Assembly (NCBI GenBank): GCA_964203565.1
Contig: CAXNMP010000004.1
Coordinates: forward strand, 50,413 to 114,412
DNA length: 64,000 bases
Source of the DNA: Limnohabitans sp.
GTDB lineage: Bacteria > Pseudomonadota > Gammaproteobacteria > Burkholderiales > Burkholderiaceae_C
Direction: 5' to 3'
This document shows positions 6,088-62,355 of this stretch, one piece after another (position 1 is the first letter of the stretch; each line of letters opens with the position of its first letter). The notes below the pieces were generated by a model. It was not told the DNA's origin. It saw nothing but the letters and a program-made list of their open reading frames with translations, and made no database searches. The position numbers and the translations under genes are program-made.

Positions 6088-6339
6088 CGTCAACCCTCCG
6101 CCTTCATCTGTTCGAGTCCCGATGGTGTCGTCGAAGTTTTGGGGTCAAAATTCGGGGGTCAAAACCTGAAAATCTAGGTTTTCACCTTGCCAGTTGCAAT
6201 ATGCAACTCTTGGCCAATTACACGAAATATTACACGGTGGCTATTTTTACATGTAAGTCATTGATTTATATAGACTTTTGACGAGCCTGGATTTCTGTTA
6301 AAGCACAGGTTCGCAATTCAAATCCGTGAAGCGCCACCA
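6088..6339 (+). repeat. Degenerate/chimeric att-like copy: left arm, IHF site, CTGTTAA loop and a diverged tRNA-like 3' half ending CCACCA
   Basis: 6216-6301 matches 12136-12221 (ACACGAAATATTACACGGTG..TAAGTCATTGATTTATATAG..GACGAGCCTGG.TTTCTGTTAA); 6295-6339 is 45 nt to CCA, the same register as the tRNA-Asn halves. Confidence 0.8.
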
Positions 6340-11075: not shown

Positions 11076-11210
11076 GAGTCGAACCTCTGCCCTCCTCTGC
11101 TAGAGCACCAGCGAGGGAGTCGAACAAGCGGGATTTCAAAGTTCAGTGTCCCTTCATGGAGTCGAACTTTGAGCTTTTTCGGTTCGAGTCCCGGTTATGT
11201 CGTCGAATGT
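11076..11210 (+). repeat. Phased 41-42 bp units (GAGTCGAAC-N14/15-GTTCGAGTCC-like); arm-only copy
   Basis: GAGTCGAAC at 11076, 11117 and 11159; degenerate TCGTCGAAT at 11200. Confidence 0.8.
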
Positions 11211-11239
11211 CAGAAGCATAATTTCAGGTCATTCGACAC

Positions 11240-11268
11240 TTGACAAAACGTATCAAAGATGGTACATT
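11240..11268 (+). promoter_or_regulatory. Sigma70 promoter of the TA operon
   Basis: TTGACA-17 nt-TACATT, 6 nt upstream of the ATG at 11275. Confidence 0.75.
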
Positions 11269-11274
11269 TTGGAT

Positions 11275-11616
11275 ATGAAACCGATATTGAACGCAAGTTT
11301 CTTCAGATCAGAAAGTGGCAATGAGCCTGTACGCGAATGGCTTAAAGCTTTGTCTGCTACAGAGCGAAGAATCATGGGTGAAGATATCAAAACAGTTCAA
11401 TTTGGTTGGCCACTGGGCATGCCTTTGGTTAGGCATCTAGAAGGTGGCATTTGGGAGATCAGGATCAAACTTGAAAACCGAATTGCTCGAATACTCTTTT
11501 GCCTCGAGGGCTCCACCATGGTGATTCTTCATGGTTTTATCAAGAAGCAACAAGCCACGCCCAAACAAGATTTGGATCTGGCCAAAGAACGTCTCAAGAT
11601 CTTGAAAAGGAAATGA
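11275..11616 (+). CDS. Type II TA toxin, RelE/ParE superfamily (Gp49/DUF891-like)
   Basis: FFRSESGNEPVREWL..IKTVQFGWPLGMPLVRHL..GIWEIR..ARILF..LHGFIKK.Q.TP..DL.LA. Confidence 0.9.
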   Translation: MKPILNASFFRSESGNEPVREWLKALSATERRIMGEDIKTVQFGWPLGMPLVRHLEGGIWEIRIKLENRIARILFCLEGSTMVILHGFIKKQQATPKQDLDLAKERLKILKRK

Positions 11617-11617
11617 C

Positions 11618-11905
11618 ATGTCAAAGAAAAACATTGGATCGAGTTTCGATGATTTTTTGCAAGAGGAATCCCTGCTTGAGTCCAGCACTGCTGTTGCCTT
11701 AAAAAGAGTTATTGCTTGGCAGATAGACCAAGAGATGAAAGCTCAGAAATTGACCAAAACTGAGCTCGCCAAACGCATGCACACAAGCCGTGCTGCCTTG
11801 AATAGATTGCTTGATGAAAACGATGCAAGCTTAACCCTAACCACTCTCGCCAGTGCCGCTGCGGCGTTAGGCAAGAAGGTGAACTTGCAACTAGCAGCGG
11901 CTTAA
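11618..11905 (+). CDS. XRE-family HTH antitoxin
   Basis: MSKKNIGSSFDDFLQEE..TKTELAKRMHTSRAALNRLLD; directly downstream of the toxin. Confidence 0.88.
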   Translation: MSKKNIGSSFDDFLQEESLLESSTAVALKRVIAWQIDQEMKAQKLTKTELAKRMHTSRAALNRLLDENDASLTLTTLASAAAALGKKVNLQLAAA

Positions 11906-11946
11906 CCAAAGATCAGTATTGCGCCAGTTAATTTTTTCATTTTGAA

Positions 11947-12415
11947 GTTCGAGCACCAGCGAGGGAGTCGAACAAAAGTGATTTCAAAGTTTAGTGTCCC
12001 GTCATGGAGTAGAACTTTTAGGAAATTTAGAACAAGCCCCAAGCCTAGCGTCTAACTTCTCGCGCGTAAAATGACTTCGCTGAGTGCAAATTTGCTTGTT
12101 TTGGCTGGAAAGTTACATAATGTAACTTTTGGGGTTATTACACGAAATATTACACGGTGACTATTTTTTCGCATAAGTCATTGATTTATATAGGTTTTTG
12201 ACGAGCCTGGCTTTCTGTTAATCCGTAGGTCCCTGGTTCGAGCCCAGGTCGAGGAGCCACCTAAAAAAGCATCGTCAAAAGCGATGTTTTTTCCTTTTAT
12301 ACGCAACAACTTGTCGCGTTGAGGGCCTCTGGGTGACTTTTTGCCCTCAAATTTCATCGAGTTATTGCACGTATATTACACGGTGGATGGTTCGAGTCAA
12401 GAGGCAGAATCAGTC
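11947..12415 (+). repeat. Full attP-like site, copy 1
   Basis: About 370 bp (12048-12415) is a close direct repeat of 21368-21722; contains the palindrome at 12109-12129, TATTACACG pairs at 12136-12156 and 12363-12382, and an IHF consensus at 12174-12186. Confidence 0.88.
12215..12259 (+). repeat. 3' half of tRNA-Asn(GTT) (att core; not a complete tRNA)
   Basis: CTGTTAA-TCCGT-AGGTC-CCTGG-TTCGAGC-CCAGG-TCGAGGA-G-CCA; no D-arm or 5' acceptor strand upstream; terminator-like hairpin follows. Confidence 0.9.
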
Positions 12416-12540
12416 GGCCCATAAAATATTCAAATGCCAAGAGACGATTCAACAAAAATCACCAGTGACGGCACTATGTGGAACGAACTTCGTAATTGGC
12501 CTCAATTTGGCCACGATAAGACTCAATAAGGTGCGACAAC

Positions 12541-12798
12541 GAACCGGCACCTTGGGTACCCAACTGGGATCGTCCATTATTTAGGCTACGAGGTTTTCTG
12601 ACACCAGAGGAAGGTACTCGTACAACATTGCACTGCGCAATTCATGCACCCCAAAAAGAGTCCGGCTTGTACTATGCAGACCCTAAACCGATGCAACCTG
12701 TAGCGCTGGGGCAAAATTCTGCATTAGCCGCTGAGCTTTGGAGGCTCAGTGAAGTTTGGATTAAACACAGCCATAACATTTCAAATCATCTTGGCTAA
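12541..12798 (+). pseudogene. C-terminal remnant of an SDR (retinol dehydrogenase/WWOX-like) gene
   Basis: Startless frame ..RPLFRLRGFLTPEEGTRTTLHCA..ESGLYYAD..LAAELWRLSE; upstream in-frame stops. Confidence 0.55.
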
Positions 12799-12966
12799 AA
12801 CTACTTAAGTGAGTAGGCTTAAGCTCGGGTCGGGAGTTGGGTATTGGCGACGGGCCTGCTGGGGGCTATGGACTTTGCCTGTATTGCATGAAACGCCAAA
12901 TCAAAGCTGTTGTGAAATTGACTTGCAGATGTCAAAGAATGAAGTTTTTGAAAAAGGAAACACCAA

Positions 12967-13944
12967 ATGAATATGAGCACAATTTGTCTCTGCAAACGCT
13001 GGTGCATGGCTGCGCTCTTGTGCGTAGCAGCCCAAGTTGTGGCGGCCCAGCCTTTTAGCTTTGTGGCCTTGGGTGACTTGCCTTACGGTCAGGCGGGCCA
13101 AGGATACGCGCCCTACAAATCGCTGATCCGTTCTATCAACCAAGAACATCCCAATTTTTCGATTCACATCGGTGACTTCAAATCAGGCTCTACGCTGTGT
13201 TCGGATGAAGAGTCCCAAGTGCAACTCGGGCATTTTGGCTTGTTTGACAGCGCCCTGGTCTTCACGCCAGGCGACAACGAATGGACCGACTGCCACCGCG
13301 CCAACAATGGCGGTCATGATCCCCTGGAGCGCCTGCAGGCTTTGCGTGCCACTTTTTACAAGCCGGGTTTGTCGATGGGTAAGCAGCCGCTGCCTCTGCT
13401 GAACCAGTCAGTGGCGATACCGGCATTTGCCAAGTTTGTAGAAAACCAGCGCTGGTATCACCAAGGCGTGGTGTTTGCCACGCTGCACATTGTGGGCAGT
13501 AACAACAACTTTGAAGTGCGTGACCCGCGTGCAGCAGCCGAATTTTTTGAGCGCGACAAGGCCAACATCGCTTGGATACGTGAAGCCTTTGCAAACGCCA
13601 CAAAGACACAGGCCAAAGCCATCGTGCTGACCATGCACGCTGACGTGTTTGAAGTCAAGAGCCTGTGGGAAGACTTTCCTGCGCACTCGGGTTTCCGTGA
13701 CAGCATTGGCGAGACTTTGCTGCCCTTGGCGGCGCAATCCAAAATCCCGGTGCTGTTGATCCACGGCGACAGCCATGTTTTCCGCTTTGACCAGCCCTTT
13801 ACGCTGAACAAAAAGCCAATCACCCAACTCACCAGGCTGGAAGTGCCCGGTGCCGGTGACGTGCGCGCAGTGCATGTGACGGTGGACTCCCGCCAACGCA
13901 ACCCCTTCGCGGTGCGCTTGTTGGAGCCAGCTGCCGCGCCCTGA
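12967..13944 (+). CDS. Secreted calcineurin-like metallophosphoesterase
   Basis: LGDLPY, IHIGDFKSG, TPGDNEWTDCH, LIHGDSH motifs; signal peptide. Confidence 0.82.
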   Translation: MNMSTICLCKRWCMAALLCVAAQVVAAQPFSFVALGDLPYGQAGQGYAPYKSLIRSINQEHPNFSIHIGDFKSGSTLCSDEESQVQLGHFGLFDSALVFTPGDNEWTDCHRANNGGHDPLERLQALRATFYKPGLSMGKQPLPLLNQSVAIPAFAKFVENQRWYHQGVVFATLHIVGSNNNFEVRDPRAAAEFFERDKANIAWIREAFANATKTQAKAIVLTMHADVFEVKSLWEDFPAHSGFRDSIGETLLPLAAQSKIPVLLIHGDSHVFRFDQPFTLNKKPITQLTRLEVPGAGDVRAVHVTVDSRQRNPFAVRLLEPAAAP

Positions 13945-14123
13945 TTCGCCAAGGCTTGTAGCCGATTTGTGCGACCATCGCGTCAATACACATGATGGAC
14001 TCGCCATTTACGATGCATCTGGTAGACAACCAGGTCGCATTGATGGAGATCTCGTTTACAACTCATCAAGCAGCCAAGTAGGTCGCATAGCGCCTAATCT
14101 CAGATGAAGGTTAACTTTGCAAT

Positions 14124-14525
14124 TTACGCAGACAGGTCAATCCTTGGTGATCCTGTATGACTGGCCAAAGACTCAGGTTTCTTTGAACTTGGCTGAGTAT
14201 TACTAACCGATGCATGTGACTGGAGTTGCCCGCCACGATTTTGCAGTTCCAAGCCAACGTGTTGCGCAGCATATACATTGCTGCTTTGCAAAGCAGCACC
14301 AAGCTTGTTCAGATAAGGATCTGCAGACACAGTGGGATCGAAATTGATCAAAGCAGTGAATGCCAGTCTTGCAGCATCCAAATCGCCCGCTTTTAAGGTT
14401 TGAAGCAAAGCCTGTAATTTTTGGCGACGACGTTGTTGCTTGTCACCCTGAGGCGAACTATTGCCATCCCAACGCTTTCTATTAGCGTCAATACGAAGCG
14501 CAAATGAAGTATCCATGACACCCAC
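14124..14525 (-). CDS. Hypothetical protein
   Basis: 133-aa helical ORF ending G.PRIDLSA. Confidence 0.6.
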   Translation of the reverse strand: MGVMDTSFALRIDANRKRWDGNSSPQGDKQQRRRQKLQALLQTLKAGDLDAARLAFTALINFDPTVSADPYLNKLGAALQSSNVYAAQHVGLELQNRGGQLQSHASVSNTQPSSKKPESLASHTGSPRIDLSA

Positions 14526-14792
14526 TCCTTCCGATCAATTTGGTCTGTTCCGCTACACCTCTGCTTTTATTAATTATTTAAGTTTCAAAATGAGTGATTG
14601 GTTGTCTCGTTTGACCTGATTTGAAAGGTTCAATAAAAATTGAATGTCAAGAGATCAACCAATCAATAGTCATCAAGCATAAAGAATGCCAAGTTGGGCG
14701 TGCGGAGATTGACAAGGTTAAAAATACGGTCAAGGTCATTAAGTGTTCACATAACACCTATAAAACATTGTTATCAACGTAGGAGGCTGAAC

Positions 14793-15128
14793 ATGGACAA
14801 TTCGGTTTCATCTATTGAACTGCTTGCTCGTCTCTTTAACCAATCATTACGCAAGCGGGGTTTTACCAGAGCCATACATAGGGCGATGAACCCTAGTGAA
14901 TGCACCGGAATCATGTATCAAGATTTCGGGGTTGTCGGTCTGGTCGTTGCAGGTGAATTGGCGCTTGAATTTTATGAATCAAGTCAAAGCCACGGCACTG
15001 GAGAAGAGTTCACACTTCCTGCAAATATCTATTTCCAAGCTACTGCCGGTGATGATGGGGCACAACTGCTAATTGCAAAGAAGCGAGCACACTTGGCAAG
15101 TACAACAGAATCGCTTGAAGAGATCTGA
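14793..15128 (+). CDS. Hypothetical protein, possible cupin-like fold
   Basis: AGGAGG RBS before the ATG at 14793; LVVAGELAL..GEEFTLPAN beta pattern. Confidence 0.55.
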   Translation: MDNSVSSIELLARLFNQSLRKRGFTRAIHRAMNPSECTGIMYQDFGVVGLVVAGELALEFYESSQSHGTGEEFTLPANIYFQATAGDDGAQLLIAKKRAHLASTTESLEEI

Positions 15129-15155
15129 TCAAACATTAACCAAAGGAGCCTGACC

Positions 15156-15443
15156 ATGGAAAACCAAGCCACTGAAAAATTCTCTGAATTAGTTGACGAG
15201 TACCAAGAAGAATTTGAAACACCAGCAGAATTGCATCGAATGGCAGCCTATCACTTGATGCAGGCCTCAAAGCAGCACGAGTTAGCCGCAGAGGCTTTTG
15301 AGAACGATGATCAAGTCACCTGCGATCTTCATTCCCTTCGTGCATACAAGCATGAACTCAATGGAAGGCAGTATTCTGAAATGGCCATGATGGATGCTGA
15401 CGATATTGATGACATAGAAGACGTTGAAGCTACACAGACATAG
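15156..15443 (+). CDS. Acidic His-containing helical hypothetical protein
   Basis: AAGGAG RBS; ELHRMAAYHL..KQHELAAEA. Confidence 0.6.
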   Translation: MENQATEKFSELVDEYQEEFETPAELHRMAAYHLMQASKQHELAAEAFENDDQVTCDLHSLRAYKHELNGRQYSEMAMMDADDIDDIEDVEATQT

Positions 15444-15466
15444 GCATCAAAAGATCTCTAAATTCA

Positions 15467-15760
15467 ATGAAGCGAGCCAGCAAATACGATAATCTTTTGA
15501 ATCCAATCAACCAAAAGAAAATTGACGATCTGTGCCAATCAATCAGTGAAAACTGTGACAGCCCCTTAGGATGGGAGCAATTAACCAAGCTAAGTGGCTT
15601 GACTCACAAAGAATTGATTGCTCTTTTTCAACTGTACAAACAAACAACGCCTATGGCGTTCATCAAACACGCTAGGCTTCTTAGAAAAATTGACTCACCG
15701 GTATTTCCTCAAAATCAACTTTTTCCAAAATCTATAAAAAATACAGATACGACAGGATGA
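15467..15760 (+). CDS. Short AraC-like HTH protein (single HTH)
   Basis: EQLTKLSGLTHKELIALFQ..TTPMAFIKHARL resembles AraC HTH1. Confidence 0.6.
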   Translation: MKRASKYDNLLNPINQKKIDDLCQSISENCDSPLGWEQLTKLSGLTHKELIALFQLYKQTTPMAFIKHARLLRKIDSPVFPQNQLFPKSIKNTDTTG

Positions 15761-15775
15761 ACATGATCACAACAA

Positions 15776-16864
15776 ATGAATGTGTTGTTGAGAGTTTTTT
15801 CTAAAACAAGACACACCCCTGCCATAAACAAATCTTTTAATGTGAAGTGTTTTTTAAAAAATACTCCCATGTCAGTTGAGTCAGTCTGTTCAGAATTCCA
15901 CCTAATCAATGATGGTGGTATCAATCGCAAAGTAGCCTATTCACGATTAGGTGAACTAAATGCAAAACATATTTTTTTATGCTTGCCGGGATTGTTAGAG
16001 ACGCGTGAGAGCTTTTATCCTTTGCTTGATATGGTTGAGCAATTTGATGATTGTTGCTGGATAAGTATAGACTACTGTGGAAGAGGAAATTCGGATCCAC
16101 TATCTTCTACTGCAAACTACTCATTCTCAAAATATCTTGCTGATACAGAAGATTTGATTGAGTCATTGATTCTGCCGCAGCAAGTGGATGCAAGTCGCAA
16201 ACTCCATCTGATTGGAACAAGTATGGGCGGCATTTTGGCAATGCATCTTGTGAATCGCTTAAGCCATAAGGTCGACAGCGTGATGCTTAACGATATTGGC
16301 TTTTATCTCCACTGGTCAGCTTTGATGACTCTTTACCAGAATATCAATCAATCAGACAACCAAATCGATAAATTAACAGTAGATGTGCGTGCCTTGGAAG
16401 CAGTACAAAGCAGCTCACACTTTGATTTGCCCTATGAATTTGATTTACTTGGAATGCGGTTTCACACTCTACTTCAAAATTTCACCGGCCGGGTTGTTTT
16501 GCTGCACAACGCTGAGAGCCCGATATGTTCATTGAACATAGCGAATCAATCCAAAGCAAAATTTCCAACCTTGAAGGTTTGGACCTTAGATAAGTCAGGC
16601 CACCCAGCCAAATGGGAGGAAAGTATGGTCGTAAAACTCTCTCAATTGATGAGGCTCAAGGCAAAGTCAATAGAAAATACAGATAGTCAAGTTTCGCTAC
16701 AAATACCTGAGATTATTCAATCAACAAGCGCCTTCGGTACGAGCTTCATTGAATCATTTCTTAAAACCAGTCAAGCCTACTTTGAATCAACTATTGAAGA
16801 TCCGAGACTTTGGTTCAACAAATTGGTAAAACGGATCAAGTTTTGGAAAGGATCTTATTCTTGA
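15776..16864 (+). CDS. Alpha/beta fold hydrolase
   Basis: CLPGL, DYCGRGNS, nucleophile motif IGTSMGG, LNDIG. Confidence 0.8.
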   Translation: MNVLLRVFSKTRHTPAINKSFNVKCFLKNTPMSVESVCSEFHLINDGGINRKVAYSRLGELNAKHIFLCLPGLLETRESFYPLLDMVEQFDDCCWISIDYCGRGNSDPLSSTANYSFSKYLADTEDLIESLILPQQVDASRKLHLIGTSMGGILAMHLVNRLSHKVDSVMLNDIGFYLHWSALMTLYQNINQSDNQIDKLTVDVRALEAVQSSSHFDLPYEFDLLGMRFHTLLQNFTGRVVLLHNAESPICSLNIANQSKAKFPTLKVWTLDKSGHPAKWEESMVVKLSQLMRLKAKSIENTDSQVSLQIPEIIQSTSAFGTSFIESFLKTSQAYFESTIEDPRLWFNKLVKRIKFWKGSYS

Positions 16865-16924
16865 CACTTTATGAAATAACCAATAAATTAAAACTGATGA
16901 ACAAAGTTTTATAAAGGAAGTGAT

Positions 16925-17560
16925 ATGAGGATAGCTTCATTCGTTGGTCAAAAAGGTGGGGTTGGAAAAAGCACCCTTGCAAGGGTACTTGCAGTGGCAG
17001 CTGCCAGACAAGAATACAAGGTTCTGCTGGGCGATTTTGATCTAGAGCAACTGTCTTGCATCGAATGGAGTGCTACCCGCTTGCGAAATGGTATTGAACC
17101 AGAGATAGAAGCACGTGCTTTCAAAAGTCTAAAAAAGCTTCGAAAATCTGTGGAAGGTTTTGATTTAGTGGTGGTGGACACTCGTGGTTTGGCCGATGAG
17201 TTAACCACAGACATCAGCCAAGAAAGTGATGTAATTTTCCTTCCAACAGGCACATCAATGGATGATCTCCGTCCTACCCTTGCCTTGGCAAGAAGGCTTT
17301 CCAAGAATCGTAAAATCGGCAATAAAATTGTATTAGTACTCTCAAAAGTAGGTCGCTCTGAACGCCTACTTGAAATCGCCAAAGTGACCATTGAAGAAGC
17401 TGGCTTCGAAGTGCTGGATAGTATTTGGCCAGAGAGAGATGGCTTTCAAGCAGACTTGGACATTGGAAAAGCCGGAAGCGAAGCTCACAATCCTTATTTG
17501 CGTGAAGCAGCTGAGTCGATTGAAGCTGAACTACTTCATATTGCGATCAATTCTAAATAA
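16925..17560 (+). CDS. ParA/MinD family ATPase (short type, no ParB neighbour)
   Basis: Deviant Walker A GQKGGVGKST, DFDLEQ, VVVDT. Confidence 0.85.
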   Translation: MRIASFVGQKGGVGKSTLARVLAVAAARQEYKVLLGDFDLEQLSCIEWSATRLRNGIEPEIEARAFKSLKKLRKSVEGFDLVVVDTRGLADELTTDISQESDVIFLPTGTSMDDLRPTLALARRLSKNRKIGNKIVLVLSKVGRSERLLEIAKVTIEEAGFEVLDSIWPERDGFQADLDIGKAGSEAHNPYLREAAESIEAELLHIAINSK

Positions 17561-17592
17561 GTTGTGTATGTATCAATTCGCCAATCAACATC

Positions 17593-18231
17593 ATGGTTGA
17601 ATTGATTGACCTAAACATAACTGATGAATTGCTTCGGGCGATTGTTGGTATTTTTGTGATTGTTGATCCTATTGGTTCAGTTGGCATTTTTTTGTCTGTC
17701 ACTAGCGGCTTTACTCAAATCAAAAAAGAAAAAGCAGCTCGTTTTGCAGGCATAACAGTTGCTGCTGTTCTGGTGATAGCCGCATTGATGGGGCAAGCAA
17801 TACTAGATCTCTTTGGAATTCGGCTTGCCGCCTTTTCAGTCGCAGGAGGGATTCTTTTTTTAATCCTGGCTGTTGAAATGATCAGAGGTGAAGGGGCTTC
17901 TCAGTTTCACAAATTGAGTGAACGACCTGAACAACTGCCGGCAGCTGCAATTGTTCCATTAGGCGTCCCTTTAATGGCGGGACCAGGAGCAATAAGTACC
18001 GTTATCCTTTCAAGTCCGGGAAGTGCTAATTGGTTTGAAACCACTATTCTCATTAGCTCAATAGCCGTGCTTGGCTTGGTAACGTGGTTGTGCTTTTCAT
18101 ATGCTCAACACATAGGAAAACTGATCGGAGATATCGGAATACAACTCATCAGCAGAATCATGGGTTTGATACTTGCGGCTTTAGCTGTCGAGTACATGGT
18201 GAAAGGTATACAGATACTGTTCAACCTTTAG
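17593..18231 (+). CDS. MarC family membrane protein
   Basis: IVDPIG, FSVAGGILF, IVPLGVPLMAGPGAISTVI, RIMGLILAALAVE. Confidence 0.9.
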   Translation: MVELIDLNITDELLRAIVGIFVIVDPIGSVGIFLSVTSGFTQIKKEKAARFAGITVAAVLVIAALMGQAILDLFGIRLAAFSVAGGILFLILAVEMIRGEGASQFHKLSERPEQLPAAAIVPLGVPLMAGPGAISTVILSSPGSANWFETTILISSIAVLGLVTWLCFSYAQHIGKLIGDIGIQLISRIMGLILAALAVEYMVKGIQILFNL

Positions 18232-18257
18232 ATTTGAGACATGCGGTCTCAAATAGT

Positions 18258-18506
18258 TCAAGAAATATTTTTAGCGTGCGTAGCCGTATCAAAGGCTTTG
18301 GCTTTGCCGATATAGAAACGATCAATGCGCCAATCTCGCAGCAACTCTATTGCCAAGTCAAAATCATCAGAATTGAGTTTGTACAGTTCAGTCACTGGAA
18401 ACTCCTGGTCAGATTCCAAAGCAAGTATGACCTTAGCAAACGTGAGACCTTCAATTGAATTTGGAGATTTTTCGATGAATTTTTTTACTTTTTTAATGGC
18501 TCGCAC
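18258..18506 (-). CDS. Hypothetical protein
   Basis: 82-aa ORF with GAGAAA RBS; LALES..F...LY.L...DFDLAIELL.DWRIDRFY. Confidence 0.6.
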   Translation of the reverse strand: MRAIKKVKKFIEKSPNSIEGLTFAKVILALESDQEFPVTELYKLNSDDFDLAIELLRDWRIDRFYIGKAKAFDTATHAKNIS

Positions 18507-18844
18507 AGCATTTCTCTAAGAATAAAGATGTGAGAATGTTACACGCTTCTTTACCAAGAAATTATGACATATTGATGTCATATTCTACCGTGATGTGAAC
18601 TTAGTTGGTGAGATGCATACAAATTCAAATTTTGACATCGAATTGAAGTTACAAGTGCCCAATGCATCAATACAGGTTTGAAAAAGGCCTGCACTCGCAG
18701 GAAGGGGTGCTTAGTGACTATTTTTTAGAAAACCATCATGAATTGCATTAAATAGTATGCAATATGAAGTTTTATTAGTCCTAAATAAACACACCGTTTC
18801 GGGGTTCCGAGTTCGAGAACCCTCATGTCAGCTGTCCGGGTATG

Positions 18845-18985
18845 GAGTCGAACTTTTGAGAAATTTAGTTCCAGCCCCAAGCCTGAGCGTCTAAGTTGTC
18901 CAATGCACGGTGACAGCACTGATTGCAAAATCTACGAAAGTGCTGGAAGGATTGCAATTTACAATTTTTGTCTATTTACATGAAA
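18845..18985 (+). repeat. Diverged left-arm copy of the att-like element
   Basis: GGAGTCGAACTTTTGAGAAATTTAG..AGCCCCAAGCCT.AGCGTCTAA..TGCAAA..GCTGGAA aligns with 12006-12156. Confidence 0.75.
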
Positions 18986-19123
18986 TTTCTTCACAGTAGT
19001 CTTAGGTCTATGGGTTAAAGTAAAAGAACTGATTCAAATCGTTGACCAAGAAAAAAATCTGATTTATTCGAATACAGTCTTGGGATCAGTTGCTTGTCTT
19101 GTTATAAATTGACAGTTGTCTGA

Positions 19124-19591
19124 ATGACTACAAAGGTGGATAAGATGTCTGCGTCTTTTATAGATTCCATACTAGCCCTAGACCAACAACTCATTCAATT
19201 GGTTTACCGGAGTCGCTCTCTGATAGAAGGAGCTGAATACGAAAAATTAATGTCTACATGTCTTCGTAACAACCCTAGCCGCGGTATCACGGGAGTTCTG
19301 ATCTCGCATTCAGGCTGGTTTCTTCAAGTGCTTGAAGGCACAGCAGCAAATGTCAGCTCACTTTTTAAAGTCATCGAAAATGACCCGCGGCATTCTGATT
19401 TTCTGCTTTTAAGATTCAACGCTGTTGCAGTTCGGGATTTCAGCGACTGGTCGATGGCCTCGATAACAGTTGATGAGCAGCGATTCATACACATGGCGAA
19501 TCAAGCTCTGCTAGCCGAAGGTGTGGCGATGTCTGCAGTCCGGGACTTCTTGTGCTATGGCAAATGGACAGATGGAGCAGAAAGCTATTGA
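19124..19591 (+). CDS. BLUF domain blue-light sensor
   Basis: LVYRS, RNN...GITGVL, FLQVLEG, I..DPRH (conserved Tyr/Asn/Gln). Confidence 0.9.
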   Translation: MTTKVDKMSASFIDSILALDQQLIQLVYRSRSLIEGAEYEKLMSTCLRNNPSRGITGVLISHSGWFLQVLEGTAANVSSLFKVIENDPRHSDFLLLRFNAVAVRDFSDWSMASITVDEQRFIHMANQALLAEGVAMSAVRDFLCYGKWTDGAESY

Positions 19592-19705
19592 TGCCAACAC
19601 CAGTCGTTCCTGACAACGCATAGGTCAATAGCTTATCCAATTCAACTCACCCTAATCAAATTCCAACACCATTCAACATGTGCGATCTTGTGATGACACC
19701 GAATC

Positions 19706-19825
19706 AAGTTCGAGCCCCAAGCCAACCGTGTAACTTTTCAAGTGCAAAATGACGCGGCCAAGTGCAAAATCTACGAAAGTACTGAAAAAATTGTAATTTA
19801 CAATTTTCGGTCATATACACGGCAG
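19706..19825 (+). repeat. Diverged left-arm copy of the att-like element
   Basis: GTTCGAGCCCCAAGCC..GTGTAACTT..AAAATGAC..AGTGCAAAATCTACGAAAGT..palindrome 19787-19807..TACACG. Confidence 0.75.
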
Positions 19826-19950
19826 TTCATTAGCAAAAAATTATGCACGAAAATTAACAGCCCTGAAACAAAAAACTAGCAGAATTCATTAAATTTTATT
19901 TACTGGTCAAGAAGATTTCGATAGGCAGTTTTTAAAATTATGGAGTTTAA

Positions 19951-20322
19951 ATGTTTTCAATTTTAAAGTTTTTCTATCTAGTTTTTCAAAAAGGTCGCAG
20001 CCTTTTAGATCCCAATCTCAATCCCTTGAGGCACGCTCCAGCGCACATCAGGTATTTCGCCACCATACTTCTAGCTTGTTTTTGGTGTTTGGCTTTTGGG
20101 CTTTACTTTAAAGAGTTTCTATCTATCGGCTTCAACATGCTTGGGCACATAGCTGTAATCAGCATGGCATTCATAACTTGGTTTACATTTAAACAGTTCA
20201 ATAGGATTTATAGCCCCAGAGCCGGAACAGAGGACTGGCTTCGCATGCCTGATCGAGGAAGTCGTTGTGACGAGATGACTGAGGAACAAAGGCTTTCAAG
20301 GGCTAATGAGTTGAATAAGTAA
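19951..20322 (+). CDS. Hypothetical membrane protein
   Basis: LDPNLNPLRH motif followed by two hydrophobic helices. Confidence 0.65.
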   Translation: MFSILKFFYLVFQKGRSLLDPNLNPLRHAPAHIRYFATILLACFWCLAFGLYFKEFLSIGFNMLGHIAVISMAFITWFTFKQFNRIYSPRAGTEDWLRMPDRGSRCDEMTEEQRLSRANELNK

Positions 20323-20568
20323 CTCACTTGTTGCATTGTGCCGATTAGCATAGAAAAAACATGGCCAAGGAAACTACTAATGTCCCGAAAAGTGATGACG
20401 ACGTAATCGATGCTGAAGTAAAGGAAATCTCAAAAAATAATCAACTTTCGTTATATACGTCGTCTAAAGATTCTCCATCAAAATATGAGTGCTTTCACAA
20501 AGATACAGTGCCAACCTTTTTATAATGAACTACAGTTCAAGTTAATCTAAAACACTTAGGAGTGATTT

Positions 20569-21261
20569 ATGACTGAACAATCTCAAACCATTGAATATGG
20601 AACTGTCTTATCCAGTCCCGAAGAGCGCAACCGTGTTCTAAGAAACACTTACTGGCTTCTAGCCCTGAGCATGTTGCCCACCGTTTTGGGAGCTTGGCTG
20701 GGCGTTGAGACTGGTCTTAGCAAGGTACTCAGTGGATGGGTGGGTCTGGCTGTGATCTTGGCTGGGGGGTTTGGATTCATCTATGCGATTGAAAAGACCA
20801 AGAACTCAGCTGCTGGTGTACCTGTTCTCTTGGGCTTTACTTTCTTCATGGGTCTGATGATCAGTAGCTTGATTGCTGCTGTATTGGGCTTTAAAAATGG
20901 CTCTTCCCTTGTTATGACTGCGTTTGGTGGTACGGCAGGCGTCTTTTTTGTCATGGCCAGTTTGGCCTCTGTTATCAAAAGAGATCTCTCTGGGATGGGT
21001 AAGTGGCTGTTTGTTGGCGCAATAGTCATGATGGTTGGTGGCATCATCAACGTGTTTGTTGGCTCCAGCGTTGGCATGATGGTGATCTCAATGATGGGTA
21101 TTGCTATCTTCAGTGCTTACATGCTTTATGACATCAAACAAATCATTGATGGTGGCGAAACCAATTACATAAGTGCAACTCTGGCTCTGTACCTCGACAT
21201 CATCAATGTATTCCAAAGCCTTCTGGCCTTGCTGGGACTCATGGGCGGCGAGAAGGACTAA
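20569..21261 (+). CDS. yccA: Bax inhibitor-1/YccA family membrane protein
   Basis: RVLRNTYWLLALS, 7 TM segments, II.GGETNYISATLALYLD..NVF. Confidence 0.9.
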   Translation: MTEQSQTIEYGTVLSSPEERNRVLRNTYWLLALSMLPTVLGAWLGVETGLSKVLSGWVGLAVILAGGFGFIYAIEKTKNSAAGVPVLLGFTFFMGLMISSLIAAVLGFKNGSSLVMTAFGGTAGVFFVMASLASVIKRDLSGMGKWLFVGAIVMMVGGIINVFVGSSVGMMVISMMGIAIFSAYMLYDIKQIIDGGETNYISATLALYLDIINVFQSLLALLGLMGGEKD

Positions 21262-21326
21262 TTACAGTAAGTCACCAATAGAGATGTCAATTTGATTTGT
21301 TGAAATCTGATTCCACCGCCTTTCAA

Positions 21327-21722
21327 GGAGTCGAACTTTCGCCCGTACTGGTTCGAGCCCTAAGCCTAGCGTCTAACTTTCACGCGTAAAATGACCGCGC
21401 TGAACGCAAATTTGCGTGTTTTGGCTGGAAAGTTACATAATGTAACTTTTGGGTTAATACACGAAATATTACACGTTTAATAAAAACGCCTATAAGTCAT
21501 TGATTTATAAGGGTTTTTGACGAGCCTGTTTTCCTGTTAATCCGTAGGTCCCTGGTTCGAGCCCAGGTCGCGGAGCCACCTAAAAAAGCATCGTCAAATG
21601 CGATGCTTTTTCCTTTTATACGCAACTACTTGTCGCGTTGAGGGCCTCTGGGTGACTTTTTGCCCTCAAATTTCATCGAGTTATTGCACGTATATTACAC
21701 GGTGGATGGCATCAGTCAAGAG
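21327..21722 (+). repeat. Full attP-like site, copy 2
   Basis: Direct repeat of copy 1; palindrome at 21429-21449, IHF consensus at 21493-21505. Confidence 0.88.
21534..21578 (+). repeat. 3' half of tRNA-Asn(GTT) (att core)
   Basis: Identical to 12215-12259 except one acceptor-stem base (TCGCGGAG vs TCGAGGAG). Confidence 0.9.
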
Positions 21723-21766
21723 GTTTAGCTTTTTGTGTTGAGAAAGTAAGGCGGTGTAGACAAGCT

Positions 21767-28226: not shown

Positions 28227-28285
28227 ATTTCAAAGTTCGGTGTCTGAGCAAGGAGTCGAACTTTGAGCTTTTTCAGTTCGAGTCC
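28227..28285 (+). repeat. Arm fragment of the att-like element
   Basis: ATTTCAAAGTTC.GTGTC..GGAGTCGAACTTTGAGCTTTTTC.GTTCGAGTCC nearly matches 11133-11191. Confidence 0.8.
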
Positions 28286-28437
28286 GGATCCAGATCAGTG
28301 AAGCTACGCACCAAGCCTTGATTCATCCGTTTTCAGTTGAACACAGAGGCGTCATTGAAGTCAAAGGTAAAGGAGAGATGAGTACTTGGTTCTTGAACAA
28401 TAGCGGGATCGCTCCCCCACTCTGCGCAGCATGAAAG

Positions 28438-62280: not shown

Positions 62281-62355
62281 TGGTGGGTCGTAGTGGGATC
62301 GAACCACTGGCTTCCACCGTGTGAAGGTGGCACTCTACCGCTGAGTTAACGACCC
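62281..62355 (-). tRNA. tRNA-Val(CAC)
   Basis: GGGTCGTTAACTCAGCGGTAGAGTGCCACC-TTCACAC-GGTGGAAGCCAGTGGTTCGATCCCACTACGACCCACCA; full cloverleaf, 75 nt. Confidence 0.96.

Follow-up and report, generated by a model that had tools for sequence, protein, structure and literature searches.

Core-less attachment-site arms around a BLUF gene and a yccA-like gene at the end of a putative tRNA-Asn-specific element in Limnohabitans sp.

Why should copies of one repeat separate a gene for a blue-light sensor from genes for membrane proteins in a freshwater bacterium? The locus lies in a stretch of 64,000 nucleotides (nt) from Limnohabitans sp. (assembly GCA_964203565.1, contig CAXNMP010000004.1, positions 50,413 to 114,412), here called the window; coordinates are those of the window unless a contig label precedes them. 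A first-pass annotation had noticed three copies of an 11-nt landmark, AGCCCYAAGCC, with a BLUF gene between the first two and an unknown membrane protein gene plus yccA between the second and the third. It took the repeats for arms of an attachment site (att) and the genes between them for acquired cargo, yccA being possibly a captured second copy, and it proposed an age gradient in which new cargo is added beside an active core while older arms decay. The arms and the cargo were supported by our analysis; the gradient was not. Region 18833-21578 is probably the right end of a 9.3-kb element without an integrase, a member of a tandem accretion array of tRNA-Asn-specific elements of the tyrosine-integrase type, in which the internal junctions were eroded by deletion and by recombination between arms.

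Results

The landmark matched four times in the window, at 12035, 18873, 19713, and 21356, always on the + strand. Shuffled sequences gave a chance expectation of 0.07 matches, and none of 100 shuffles gave four. The three positions reported earlier were borne out, with the copy at 12035 as an addition, and both reported intervals were correct: 840 bp from 18873 to 19713 and 1,643 bp from 19713 to 21356. The repeat extends far past the 11-mer. Positions 18888-18989 match 19727-19828 over 102 nt with 72% identity, identity reaches 87% between 19708-19737 and 21351-21380, and the two left copies, arms C and D in Table 1, match full arms elsewhere in the genome with BLAST E values of 1e-11 to 6e-26. 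The only gene in the first interval is the BLUF gene, as had been annotated. The second interval holds three genes: the gene for a membrane protein of 123 amino acids (aa) and a Bax1-I/YccA-like gene, both of which had been seen, and between them an open reading frame (ORF) of 54 aa that had been missed.

The 11-mer sits within a unit of ~265 bp, the best complete copies of which are at 11935-12300, our reference copy for arm comparisons, and at 21290-21725. From left to right the unit consists of GAGTCGAAC-like repeats, phased within the P arm; a 21-bp palindrome; two copies of TTACACG as direct repeats; a conserved segment ending in TTTCTGTTAA; and the 3' half of tRNA-Asn(GUU), which runs from the anticodon loop to CCA and is followed by a terminator. 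A second pair, TTGCACG/TTACACG, lies ~100 nt beyond the tRNA half. The halves of the palindrome covary, both changing together between copies. We read the unit as an attP-like junction (P arm, core, and P' arm) because its arm-type sites, anticodon-loop core, and tRNA-Asn half are found as they are beside the true tRNA-Asn genes. TTACACG is likely an arm-type integrase site, and on this anatomy the unit belongs to elements that integrate at the anticodon loop of tRNA-Asn.

Arm E, the rightmost copy, shares 99% identity with an arm at C4:48537 and 86% with the copy at 12035 (C4 is the contig that holds the window; C3 and C5 are other contigs of the same genome, G000). The tRNA half that follows it shares with the true tRNA-Asn genes an unbroken run of 47 identical nt, which starts at the anticodon arm and reaches the 3' end (BLAST, 96% over 53 nt). 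ARAGORN and Rfam found no tRNA at the repeats, their sole call in the window being a tRNA-Val at 62281. A known RNA at the repeats (tRNA, tmRNA, or other) was rejected, as the tRNA-like parts are 3' halves only. Among eight full arms from three subfamilies, the core-proximal segment was 92% conserved (minimum, 85%), compared with 60 to 63% for the outer segments, which suggests that selection still maintains the complete junctions as functional att sites. This segment, TAAGTCATTG...TTTCTGTTAA, lies at 12174-12223 and 21493-21540 and has equivalents in six other arms.

The palindrome is present at 6192-6212, 12109-12129, 19786-19806, and 21429-21449 and can be read as two 8-bp inverted arms with a 7-bp spacer. 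An 8-7-8 inverted layout is that of a tyrosine-recombinase core site. The palindrome and the motif GTCTAAC were also considered as dif/pdif or attC sites; they fitted the consensus sequences poorly by eye and were dropped.

Table 1. Features of the right end of the 9.3-kb element and its left boundary junction
Feature	Position	Strand	Details
Left boundary junction of the 9.3-kb element	12173-12404	+	Core-proximal segment, tRNA-Asn 3' half (12215-12259), terminator, P' sites; 232-bp direct repeat of 21492-21723, 94% identity
Arm C, putative truncated, core-less P-arm fossil	18833-18994	+	GAGTCGAAC at 18845, 11-mer at 18873, imperfect palindrome at 18950-18969, degenerate arm-type site TTACATG at 18976
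Short BLUF blue-light photoreceptor gene	19145-19591	+	148 aa (155 aa from ATG at 19124); PF04940, E 2e-25
Arm D, putative truncated, core-less type II P-arm fossil, chimeric	19677-19822	+	11-mer at 19713, palindrome at 19786-19806, arm-type site ATACACG at 19815
Membrane protein gene	19951-20322	+	123 aa; conserved environmental family
ORF accompanying the membrane gene	20361-20525	+	54 aa; 94% aa identity in the internal duplicate
YccA-like (Bax1-I family) membrane protein gene	20569-21261	+	230 aa; PF01027, E 1e-46
Arm E, complete type I P arm	21290-21533	+	GAGTCGAAC at 21328, 11-mer at 21356, palindrome at 21429-21449, arm-type sites at 21456-21463 and 21468-21475, core-proximal segment
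Crossover core CTGTTAA (anticodon loop) and tRNA-Asn(GUU) 3' half, ending in CCA	21534-21578	+	Not an intact tRNA
Terminator hairpin beside the tRNA half	21583-21611	+	12 pairs, then a T-run
P' arm-type sites TTGCACG and TTACACG	21683-21701	+	Paired TTACACG also after the true tRNA-Asn genes on C5 and C3, before the integrase genes

Arms C and D are fossil junctions from which the core-proximal segment, the core, and the tRNA half are missing. Between 18700 and 21800 the core sequence CTGTTAA occurs once, at 21534, and the core-proximal segment is unrecognizable in both arms (33 to 44% identity, about random). Each arm retains one degenerate arm-type site. Being core-less, arms C and D should be unusable by an integrase. 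By their structure, then, the repeats at 18873, 19713, and 21356 are P arms of tRNA-Asn-specific integrative elements, worn down in the left two.

Are the two left arms also the older ones? The observation that they diverge more from the full att was numerically right. Over ~135 aligned nt, arm C is 55 to 60% identical, and arm D 55% identical, to four type I arms, versus 86% between the copies at 12035 and 21356 and 86 to 99% among the type I arms overall. Arms C and D are 72% identical to each other and 58 to 74% identical to the type II arms on C5, with 70 to 74% for the two closest. Arm C is a mosaic, its left segment being 85 to 87% identical to type I arms and its middle segment 73 to 75% identical to type II arms. 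The extra divergence of arms C and D thus appears to be largely a matter of lineage, reflecting a second arm subfamily, and not decay. Because C and D are equidistant from the full arm and differ from it mostly by lineage, an age gradient formed in place is unsupported. Arm identity set against distance from the core gave no trend, the result that the first-pass annotation had itself named as speaking against its proposal. In accretion as usually modeled, moreover, a new element inserts at the intact tRNA gene and not at a junction such as that at 21534; an intact tRNA-Asn gene with an integrase gene beside it lies on C5.

Arm E closes a longer unit. Segment 12215-21578 is a 9.3-kb element flanked by 232-bp repeats (94% identity), and region 18833-21578 is its right-hand 2.7 kb. 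Both of its ends carry complete junctions, candidate attL and attR sites; the 840-bp and 1,643-bp modules do not, arms C and D being core-less. Pfam searches found no integrase in the window from 2 to 27 kb, no tyrosine recombinase was seen from 1 to 28 kb, and the genome's matches to PF00589 lie elsewhere. The ORFs of 12300-21300 gave no match to PF00589 and no conjugation-related Pfam match, and the sole maintenance-type gene among them encodes a ParA-like ATPase. Loss of the integrase and of the transfer genes, which marks a cis-mobilizable element (CIME), is what we found in the 9.3-kb element.

The integrases adjoin the two intact tRNA-Asn genes of the genome, at C5 c73025-73100 and C3 c24232-24307. 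Each of these is followed by paired TTACACG and then by a tyrosine recombinase gene (461 or 491 aa; the proteins are 50% identical). The 461-aa protein, encoded at C5:71514-72899 directly after tRNA-Asn, scored 29.3 bits against PF00589, for which the cutoff is 27.1 bits. Besides the two at the ends of the 9.3-kb element, tRNA-Asn 3' halves occur at C4:13428 and C4:48757. As in a tandem array, then, direct repeats of the tRNA 3' half bound segments, and an integrase gene adjoins the intact tRNA-Asn. At least 16 arm copies are present in the genome, all on C4 and C5. A well-assembled relative (G016) has the same architecture: going from tRNA-Asn, a tRNA half comes after 43 kb, and after another 11 kb comes an arm that carries a tRNA half. 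In public genomes the conserved arm block was found in 49 stretches, most of them from Limnohabitans and the others from Polynucleobacter, Curvibacter, Acidovorax, and Oxalobacteraceae.

Elsewhere on the two contigs, C4:13428-25688 and C5 2992-17817 (in reverse) are related elements, 83 to 94% identical over ~12 kb, each starting at tRNA-Asn sequence. The C5 element has an intact 461-aa integrase gene. The corresponding region on C4 has ORFs of 238 and 107 aa with no Pfam match, and its integrase gene appears to be broken.

The modules next to the arms have moved as blocks. Window positions 19761-21725 are repeated at C4:46937-48907 with 93.7% identity over 1.97 kb, ~1.5 to 3.5 kb upstream of the window start and ~23 kb from the array copy. 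The duplicated block comprises the right part of arm D, the membrane gene, the 54-aa ORF, yccA, the full arm, the tRNA half, and P'. Because the duplicate carries the same truncation of arm D, the truncated arm must have traveled within a larger unit. The left part of the arm is different there (<60% identity), and across the arm the identity between the two copies climbs gradually, from <60% to 85% to 95%. The membrane protein of the duplicate is intact and 99% identical in aa sequence. Its yccA has single-base insertions at nt 162, 198, and 393 and in-frame stops, so it is a pseudogene.

We compared the modules with 80 other genomes of the genus (labeled, for example, G005, G011, and G082). 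The BLUF module, 18982-19750, is 91.6% identical in G082, and the protein is 97% identical. G082 has neither the left part of arm C nor the yccA module downstream, and its BLUF gene has different neighbors. Arm D is therefore chimeric: the part up to 19750 is kept with BLUF in G082, and the part from ~19761 is kept with the membrane-yccA block in the C4 duplicate. A metagenome contig (L147) is 95% identical to the window from 19793, inside the palindrome, and adjoins a transposase-like ORF. Downstream of a yccA of the array type (91% identical DNA) in G011 (L063, G011:C5:98000-107253, reverse, first 1.4 kb) lie first a truncated arm, then a 137-aa gene, and finally a full type I arm carrying a tRNA-Asn half; by its layout this stretch adds a further mini-module to the stack at that position. 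The breakpoints fall at ~125, 150, 165, 190, 220, and 235 of the arm unit. A single fixed breakpoint was rejected, the positions being scattered.

The array yccA is, as the first-pass annotation had suspected, a second copy. Its product scored 159.6 bits against PF01027 (cutoff, 34.1) and 107 bits against NF007765 (YccA, FtsH protease modulator, equivalog), which is under the cutoff of 353 bits. "YccA-like" is therefore the safe name, the protein lying within the core yccA-like clade of the genus. The genome's core yccA-like gene, at C3:92002-92691, is 70% identical in aa sequence to the array copy. Of ~35 other loci examined in the genus, nearly all have the same genes on either side of yccA as the core locus does; the clear exception is G049:C29, where neither flank matches. 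In a maximum-likelihood tree, the genus formed one clade (support, 100/99). Within it, the array copy was sister to the second, non-core copy of G049 (100/99), and this pair joined the core copy of G055 (95/81). A separate supported clade (95/93) contained the core copy of the genome itself. Outside the genus, identity to the array yccA was at most 62%. On the strength of the tree grouping and the synteny, the array yccA is a xenologue from a congener and not a local duplicate, and the extra copy is best regarded as horizontally acquired. No arms were found within 9 to 15 kb of the second yccA of G049, which has an arm-free context. It had also been reasoned that BLUF and yccA lying together in relatives without the repeats would count against the proposal. 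The two genes neighbor each other in none of the 80 genomes.

The BLUF gene encodes a predicted light sensor. The domain match covers positions 1 to 92 of 92, and alignment to BlrB (2byc) shows that the YRSR, LQ..EG (Gln), and DWSM positions are retained. Judged from this alignment, the product has a complete BLUF domain that keeps the Tyr, Gln, and Trp/Met positions of the flavin pocket. Orthologues with at least 86% identity are present in 3 of the 80 other genus genomes, and the genome itself has a second copy on C5. In two of the genomes (G005 and G081) no arms lie within 9 to 15 kb of the BLUF orthologue, the contexts being arm-free and chromosomal. The second copy in the genome, C5:23824-24252, is 87% identical in aa sequence; a complete type II arm is found ~0.9 kb away, but gene and arm are oppositely oriented.

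The 123-aa membrane protein matched no Pfam or NCBIfam family, and the NCBIfam search of the small proteins gave zero matches. It has 240 homologues, mostly of 123 aa, and its gene is present in 3 of the 80 genus genomes. A metagenome contig (L148) is 91% identical in DNA sequence to 19946-20510, with an ORF called at the place of the 54-aa ORF; the match begins 5 nt before the start codon of the membrane gene and runs through that ORF. Homologues of the membrane gene elsewhere lie at loci with MerR, HIPIP, DCC1, FolB, DUF4149, and photolyase genes. The neighborhood recurs (L137-L143, L148-L150, and L059:1-5700), with genes for a MerR-type regulator, HIPIP, a DCC1-like protein, COQ7, FolB, DUF4149, DUF2237, and photolyase. 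The usual home of the membrane gene looks like a light and oxidative-stress locus and, together with BLUF, this gives the local cargo a light-response flavor. Taken together, the comparisons show cargo made up of extra or xenologous copies of genes that occupy ordinary chromosomal loci in related species, as far as their sequences tell.

Two other stretches of the window deserve mention. At 11103-11905, a Gp49/HigB-like toxin gene and a helix-turn-helix antitoxin gene form a pair with a fragment of an arm, the left part only, ahead of it. This fragment breaks off close to the arm position at which two others do, one following yccA in G011 and one at 28241-28292. Positions 14734-16674 (1.94 kb) hold three small ORFs and most of an alpha/beta-hydrolase gene. 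This segment is 99% identical to C3:491602-493542, on a contig without arm copies, and 95% identical to a segment in a relative (G044); it was transferred or duplicated between the array and C3 very recently.

Discussion

We think it reasonably likely that the right end of the 9.3-kb element was built by accretion. Elements would integrate site specifically at tRNA-Asn, and formerly separate elements or their ends would become joined; loss of an integrase would leave a CIME, alongside which further elements could integrate. Deletion and homologous or illegitimate recombination between arms would then strip internal cores, as in arms C and D, and this would weld BLUF and the block of membrane gene, 54-aa ORF, and yccA into the right end of a composite element. 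The 9.3-kb unit, not the mini-modules, might still be excisable, with an integrase acting in trans from the tRNA-Asn locus of C5, and could be mobile today.

Several observations weigh against this account. We found no complete ancestor of either mini-module, such as an integrase element ending in BLUF and an intact type II arm; serial integration of separate elements is therefore an inference, as is deletion as the eroding process. No overlaps of contig ends were found that link C5, with its intact tRNA-Asn and integrase, to C4. Three independent homology breakpoints lie in or within ~30 nt of the palindrome, a cluster that might point to a site-specific process instead of deletion at random. 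Finally, accretion alone does not explain why the captured membrane gene has so tight a boundary, 5 nt upstream of its start codon.

Homologous recombination or gene conversion between arms within one element might have done the same work with no serial integration, the arms acting as portable homology that shuffles cargo between related elements. The mosaic of type I and type II segments in arm C fits this well, as does arm D, the left of which goes with the BLUF module and the right with the membrane-yccA module. So do the gradual rise in identity between the arm D copies, with no single switch point, and the finding that matches to other parts of the 9.3-kb element lie at places that vary from genome to genome. 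However, shuffling alone does not explain why the internal arms lack the core-proximal segment and the core, and the many complete attP-like junctions with tRNA halves in the array require site-specific integration. As the whole explanation, shuffling is unlikely though plausible; it partly overlaps accretion and complements rather than excludes it.

It is improbable that the locus is an integron-like platform in which a recombinase inserts single-gene cassettes at a fixed arm site, for example the palindrome, with the copies at 18873 and 19713 as functional boundaries. The modules are indeed small (0.84, 0.85, and 1.64 kb) and co-oriented, with one to three genes each. The symmetry of the palindrome is maintained via compensatory changes, the three breakpoints just mentioned are in or near it, the membrane gene has its tight boundary, and G011 has an additional mini-module between yccA and the full arm. 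But the other breakpoints are spread over >100 nt of the arm, among them the one that closes the BLUF module on the right in G082, which lies 37 nt before the palindrome, and the truncations of the right part of the arm vary among copies. Nor is there an IntI-type or other recombinase nearby, and the arms are without attC architecture. A bolder version is that the arm itself, with its phased repeats and 8-7-8 palindrome, is the crossover site. The tRNA-Asn arrays of freshwater Burkholderiales would then be an integron-like capture platform, served either by a tyrosine integrase of the tRNA type or by an enzyme like Xer and preferring light- and stress-response genes of related species; this we regard as a long shot.

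That the repeats are there by chance, or are shared promoter or operator modules with no role in recombination, is hardly credible: each arm does lie upstream of a co-oriented gene, but the repeats are highly nonrandom and homologous to units ending in tRNA-Asn halves beside integrase arm-type sites, and no sigma-70-like promoter was found on the + strand of the arms.

If accretion is the right account, a tRNA-anchored array in a streamlined freshwater bacterium has been turning separate mobile segments into one composite, whose internal docking sites lose their cores and whose end genes turn into fixed passengers. These passengers are not exotic: a blue-light sensor, a membrane protein of a light-stress locus, and a yccA-like stress protein. 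Because the arm block is common to Limnohabitans, Polynucleobacter, Curvibacter, Acidovorax, and Oxalobacteraceae, the array may be a common pool through which lake bacteria exchange accessory genes. The mechanism of tandem accretion and CIME formation is already known, and the value of the present case is therefore descriptive rather than conceptual.

Of the known systems, integron arrays resemble the locus in their compact, co-oriented modules of one to few genes with a repeated, recombination-site-like element between them, and the array here likewise includes a toxin-antitoxin module (11197-11905). An integron cassette carries an attC site, an imperfect inverted repeat of 57 to 141 bp with the order R''/L''-L'/R' and crossover at GTT, and IntI, attI, and Pc lie beside the array. 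In contrast, IntI, attI, and Pc are absent here, and the repeats are att arms of 150 to 265 bp, not attC sites; two of the three have no crossover core, and the module boundaries fall at varying arm positions.

The ssrA-specific genomic islands of Dehalococcoides show the pattern of tandem accretion and decay as well (McMurdie 2011; PMC3146451). There, too, a single small-RNA gene has many islands in tandem within ~100 kb on its downstream side, with direct repeats of the gene's 3' end as their boundaries, and some members, which have no integration module, have been interpreted as CIMEs or fixed remnants. The Dehalococcoides system uses a serine recombinase, DsiB, with a 20-bp repeat at ssrA, whereas the Limnohabitans array has a tyrosine recombinase, a 45-nt tRNA-Asn half with long arms, and far smaller modules.

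The model of accretion and decay, in which elements lose their integrase, neighbors integrate, and composites move and fuse, has been reviewed (PMC5704250), together with CIMEs and the Streptococcus accretion arrays of the ICESt1/ICESt3 type (Pavlovic 2004 and Bellanger 2011, as reviewed there). In both cases, site-specific elements pile up behind a target gene, at its 3' end; members without integrase and transfer genes keep their att sites, which are candidate sites here; composites can fuse and capture genes; and a neighbor supplies, or here would supply, the integrase. The Limnohabitans array, known from its sequence alone, differs in that the target is tRNA-Asn and the host a freshwater betaproteobacterium. 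Its junctions are large and attP-like, with a P arm of ~250 bp, and belong to at least three subfamilies. Unlike the members of the Streptococcus arrays, the BLUF and membrane-yccA mini-modules are not CIMEs but are bounded by core-less fossils inside a CIME-like 9.3-kb unit.

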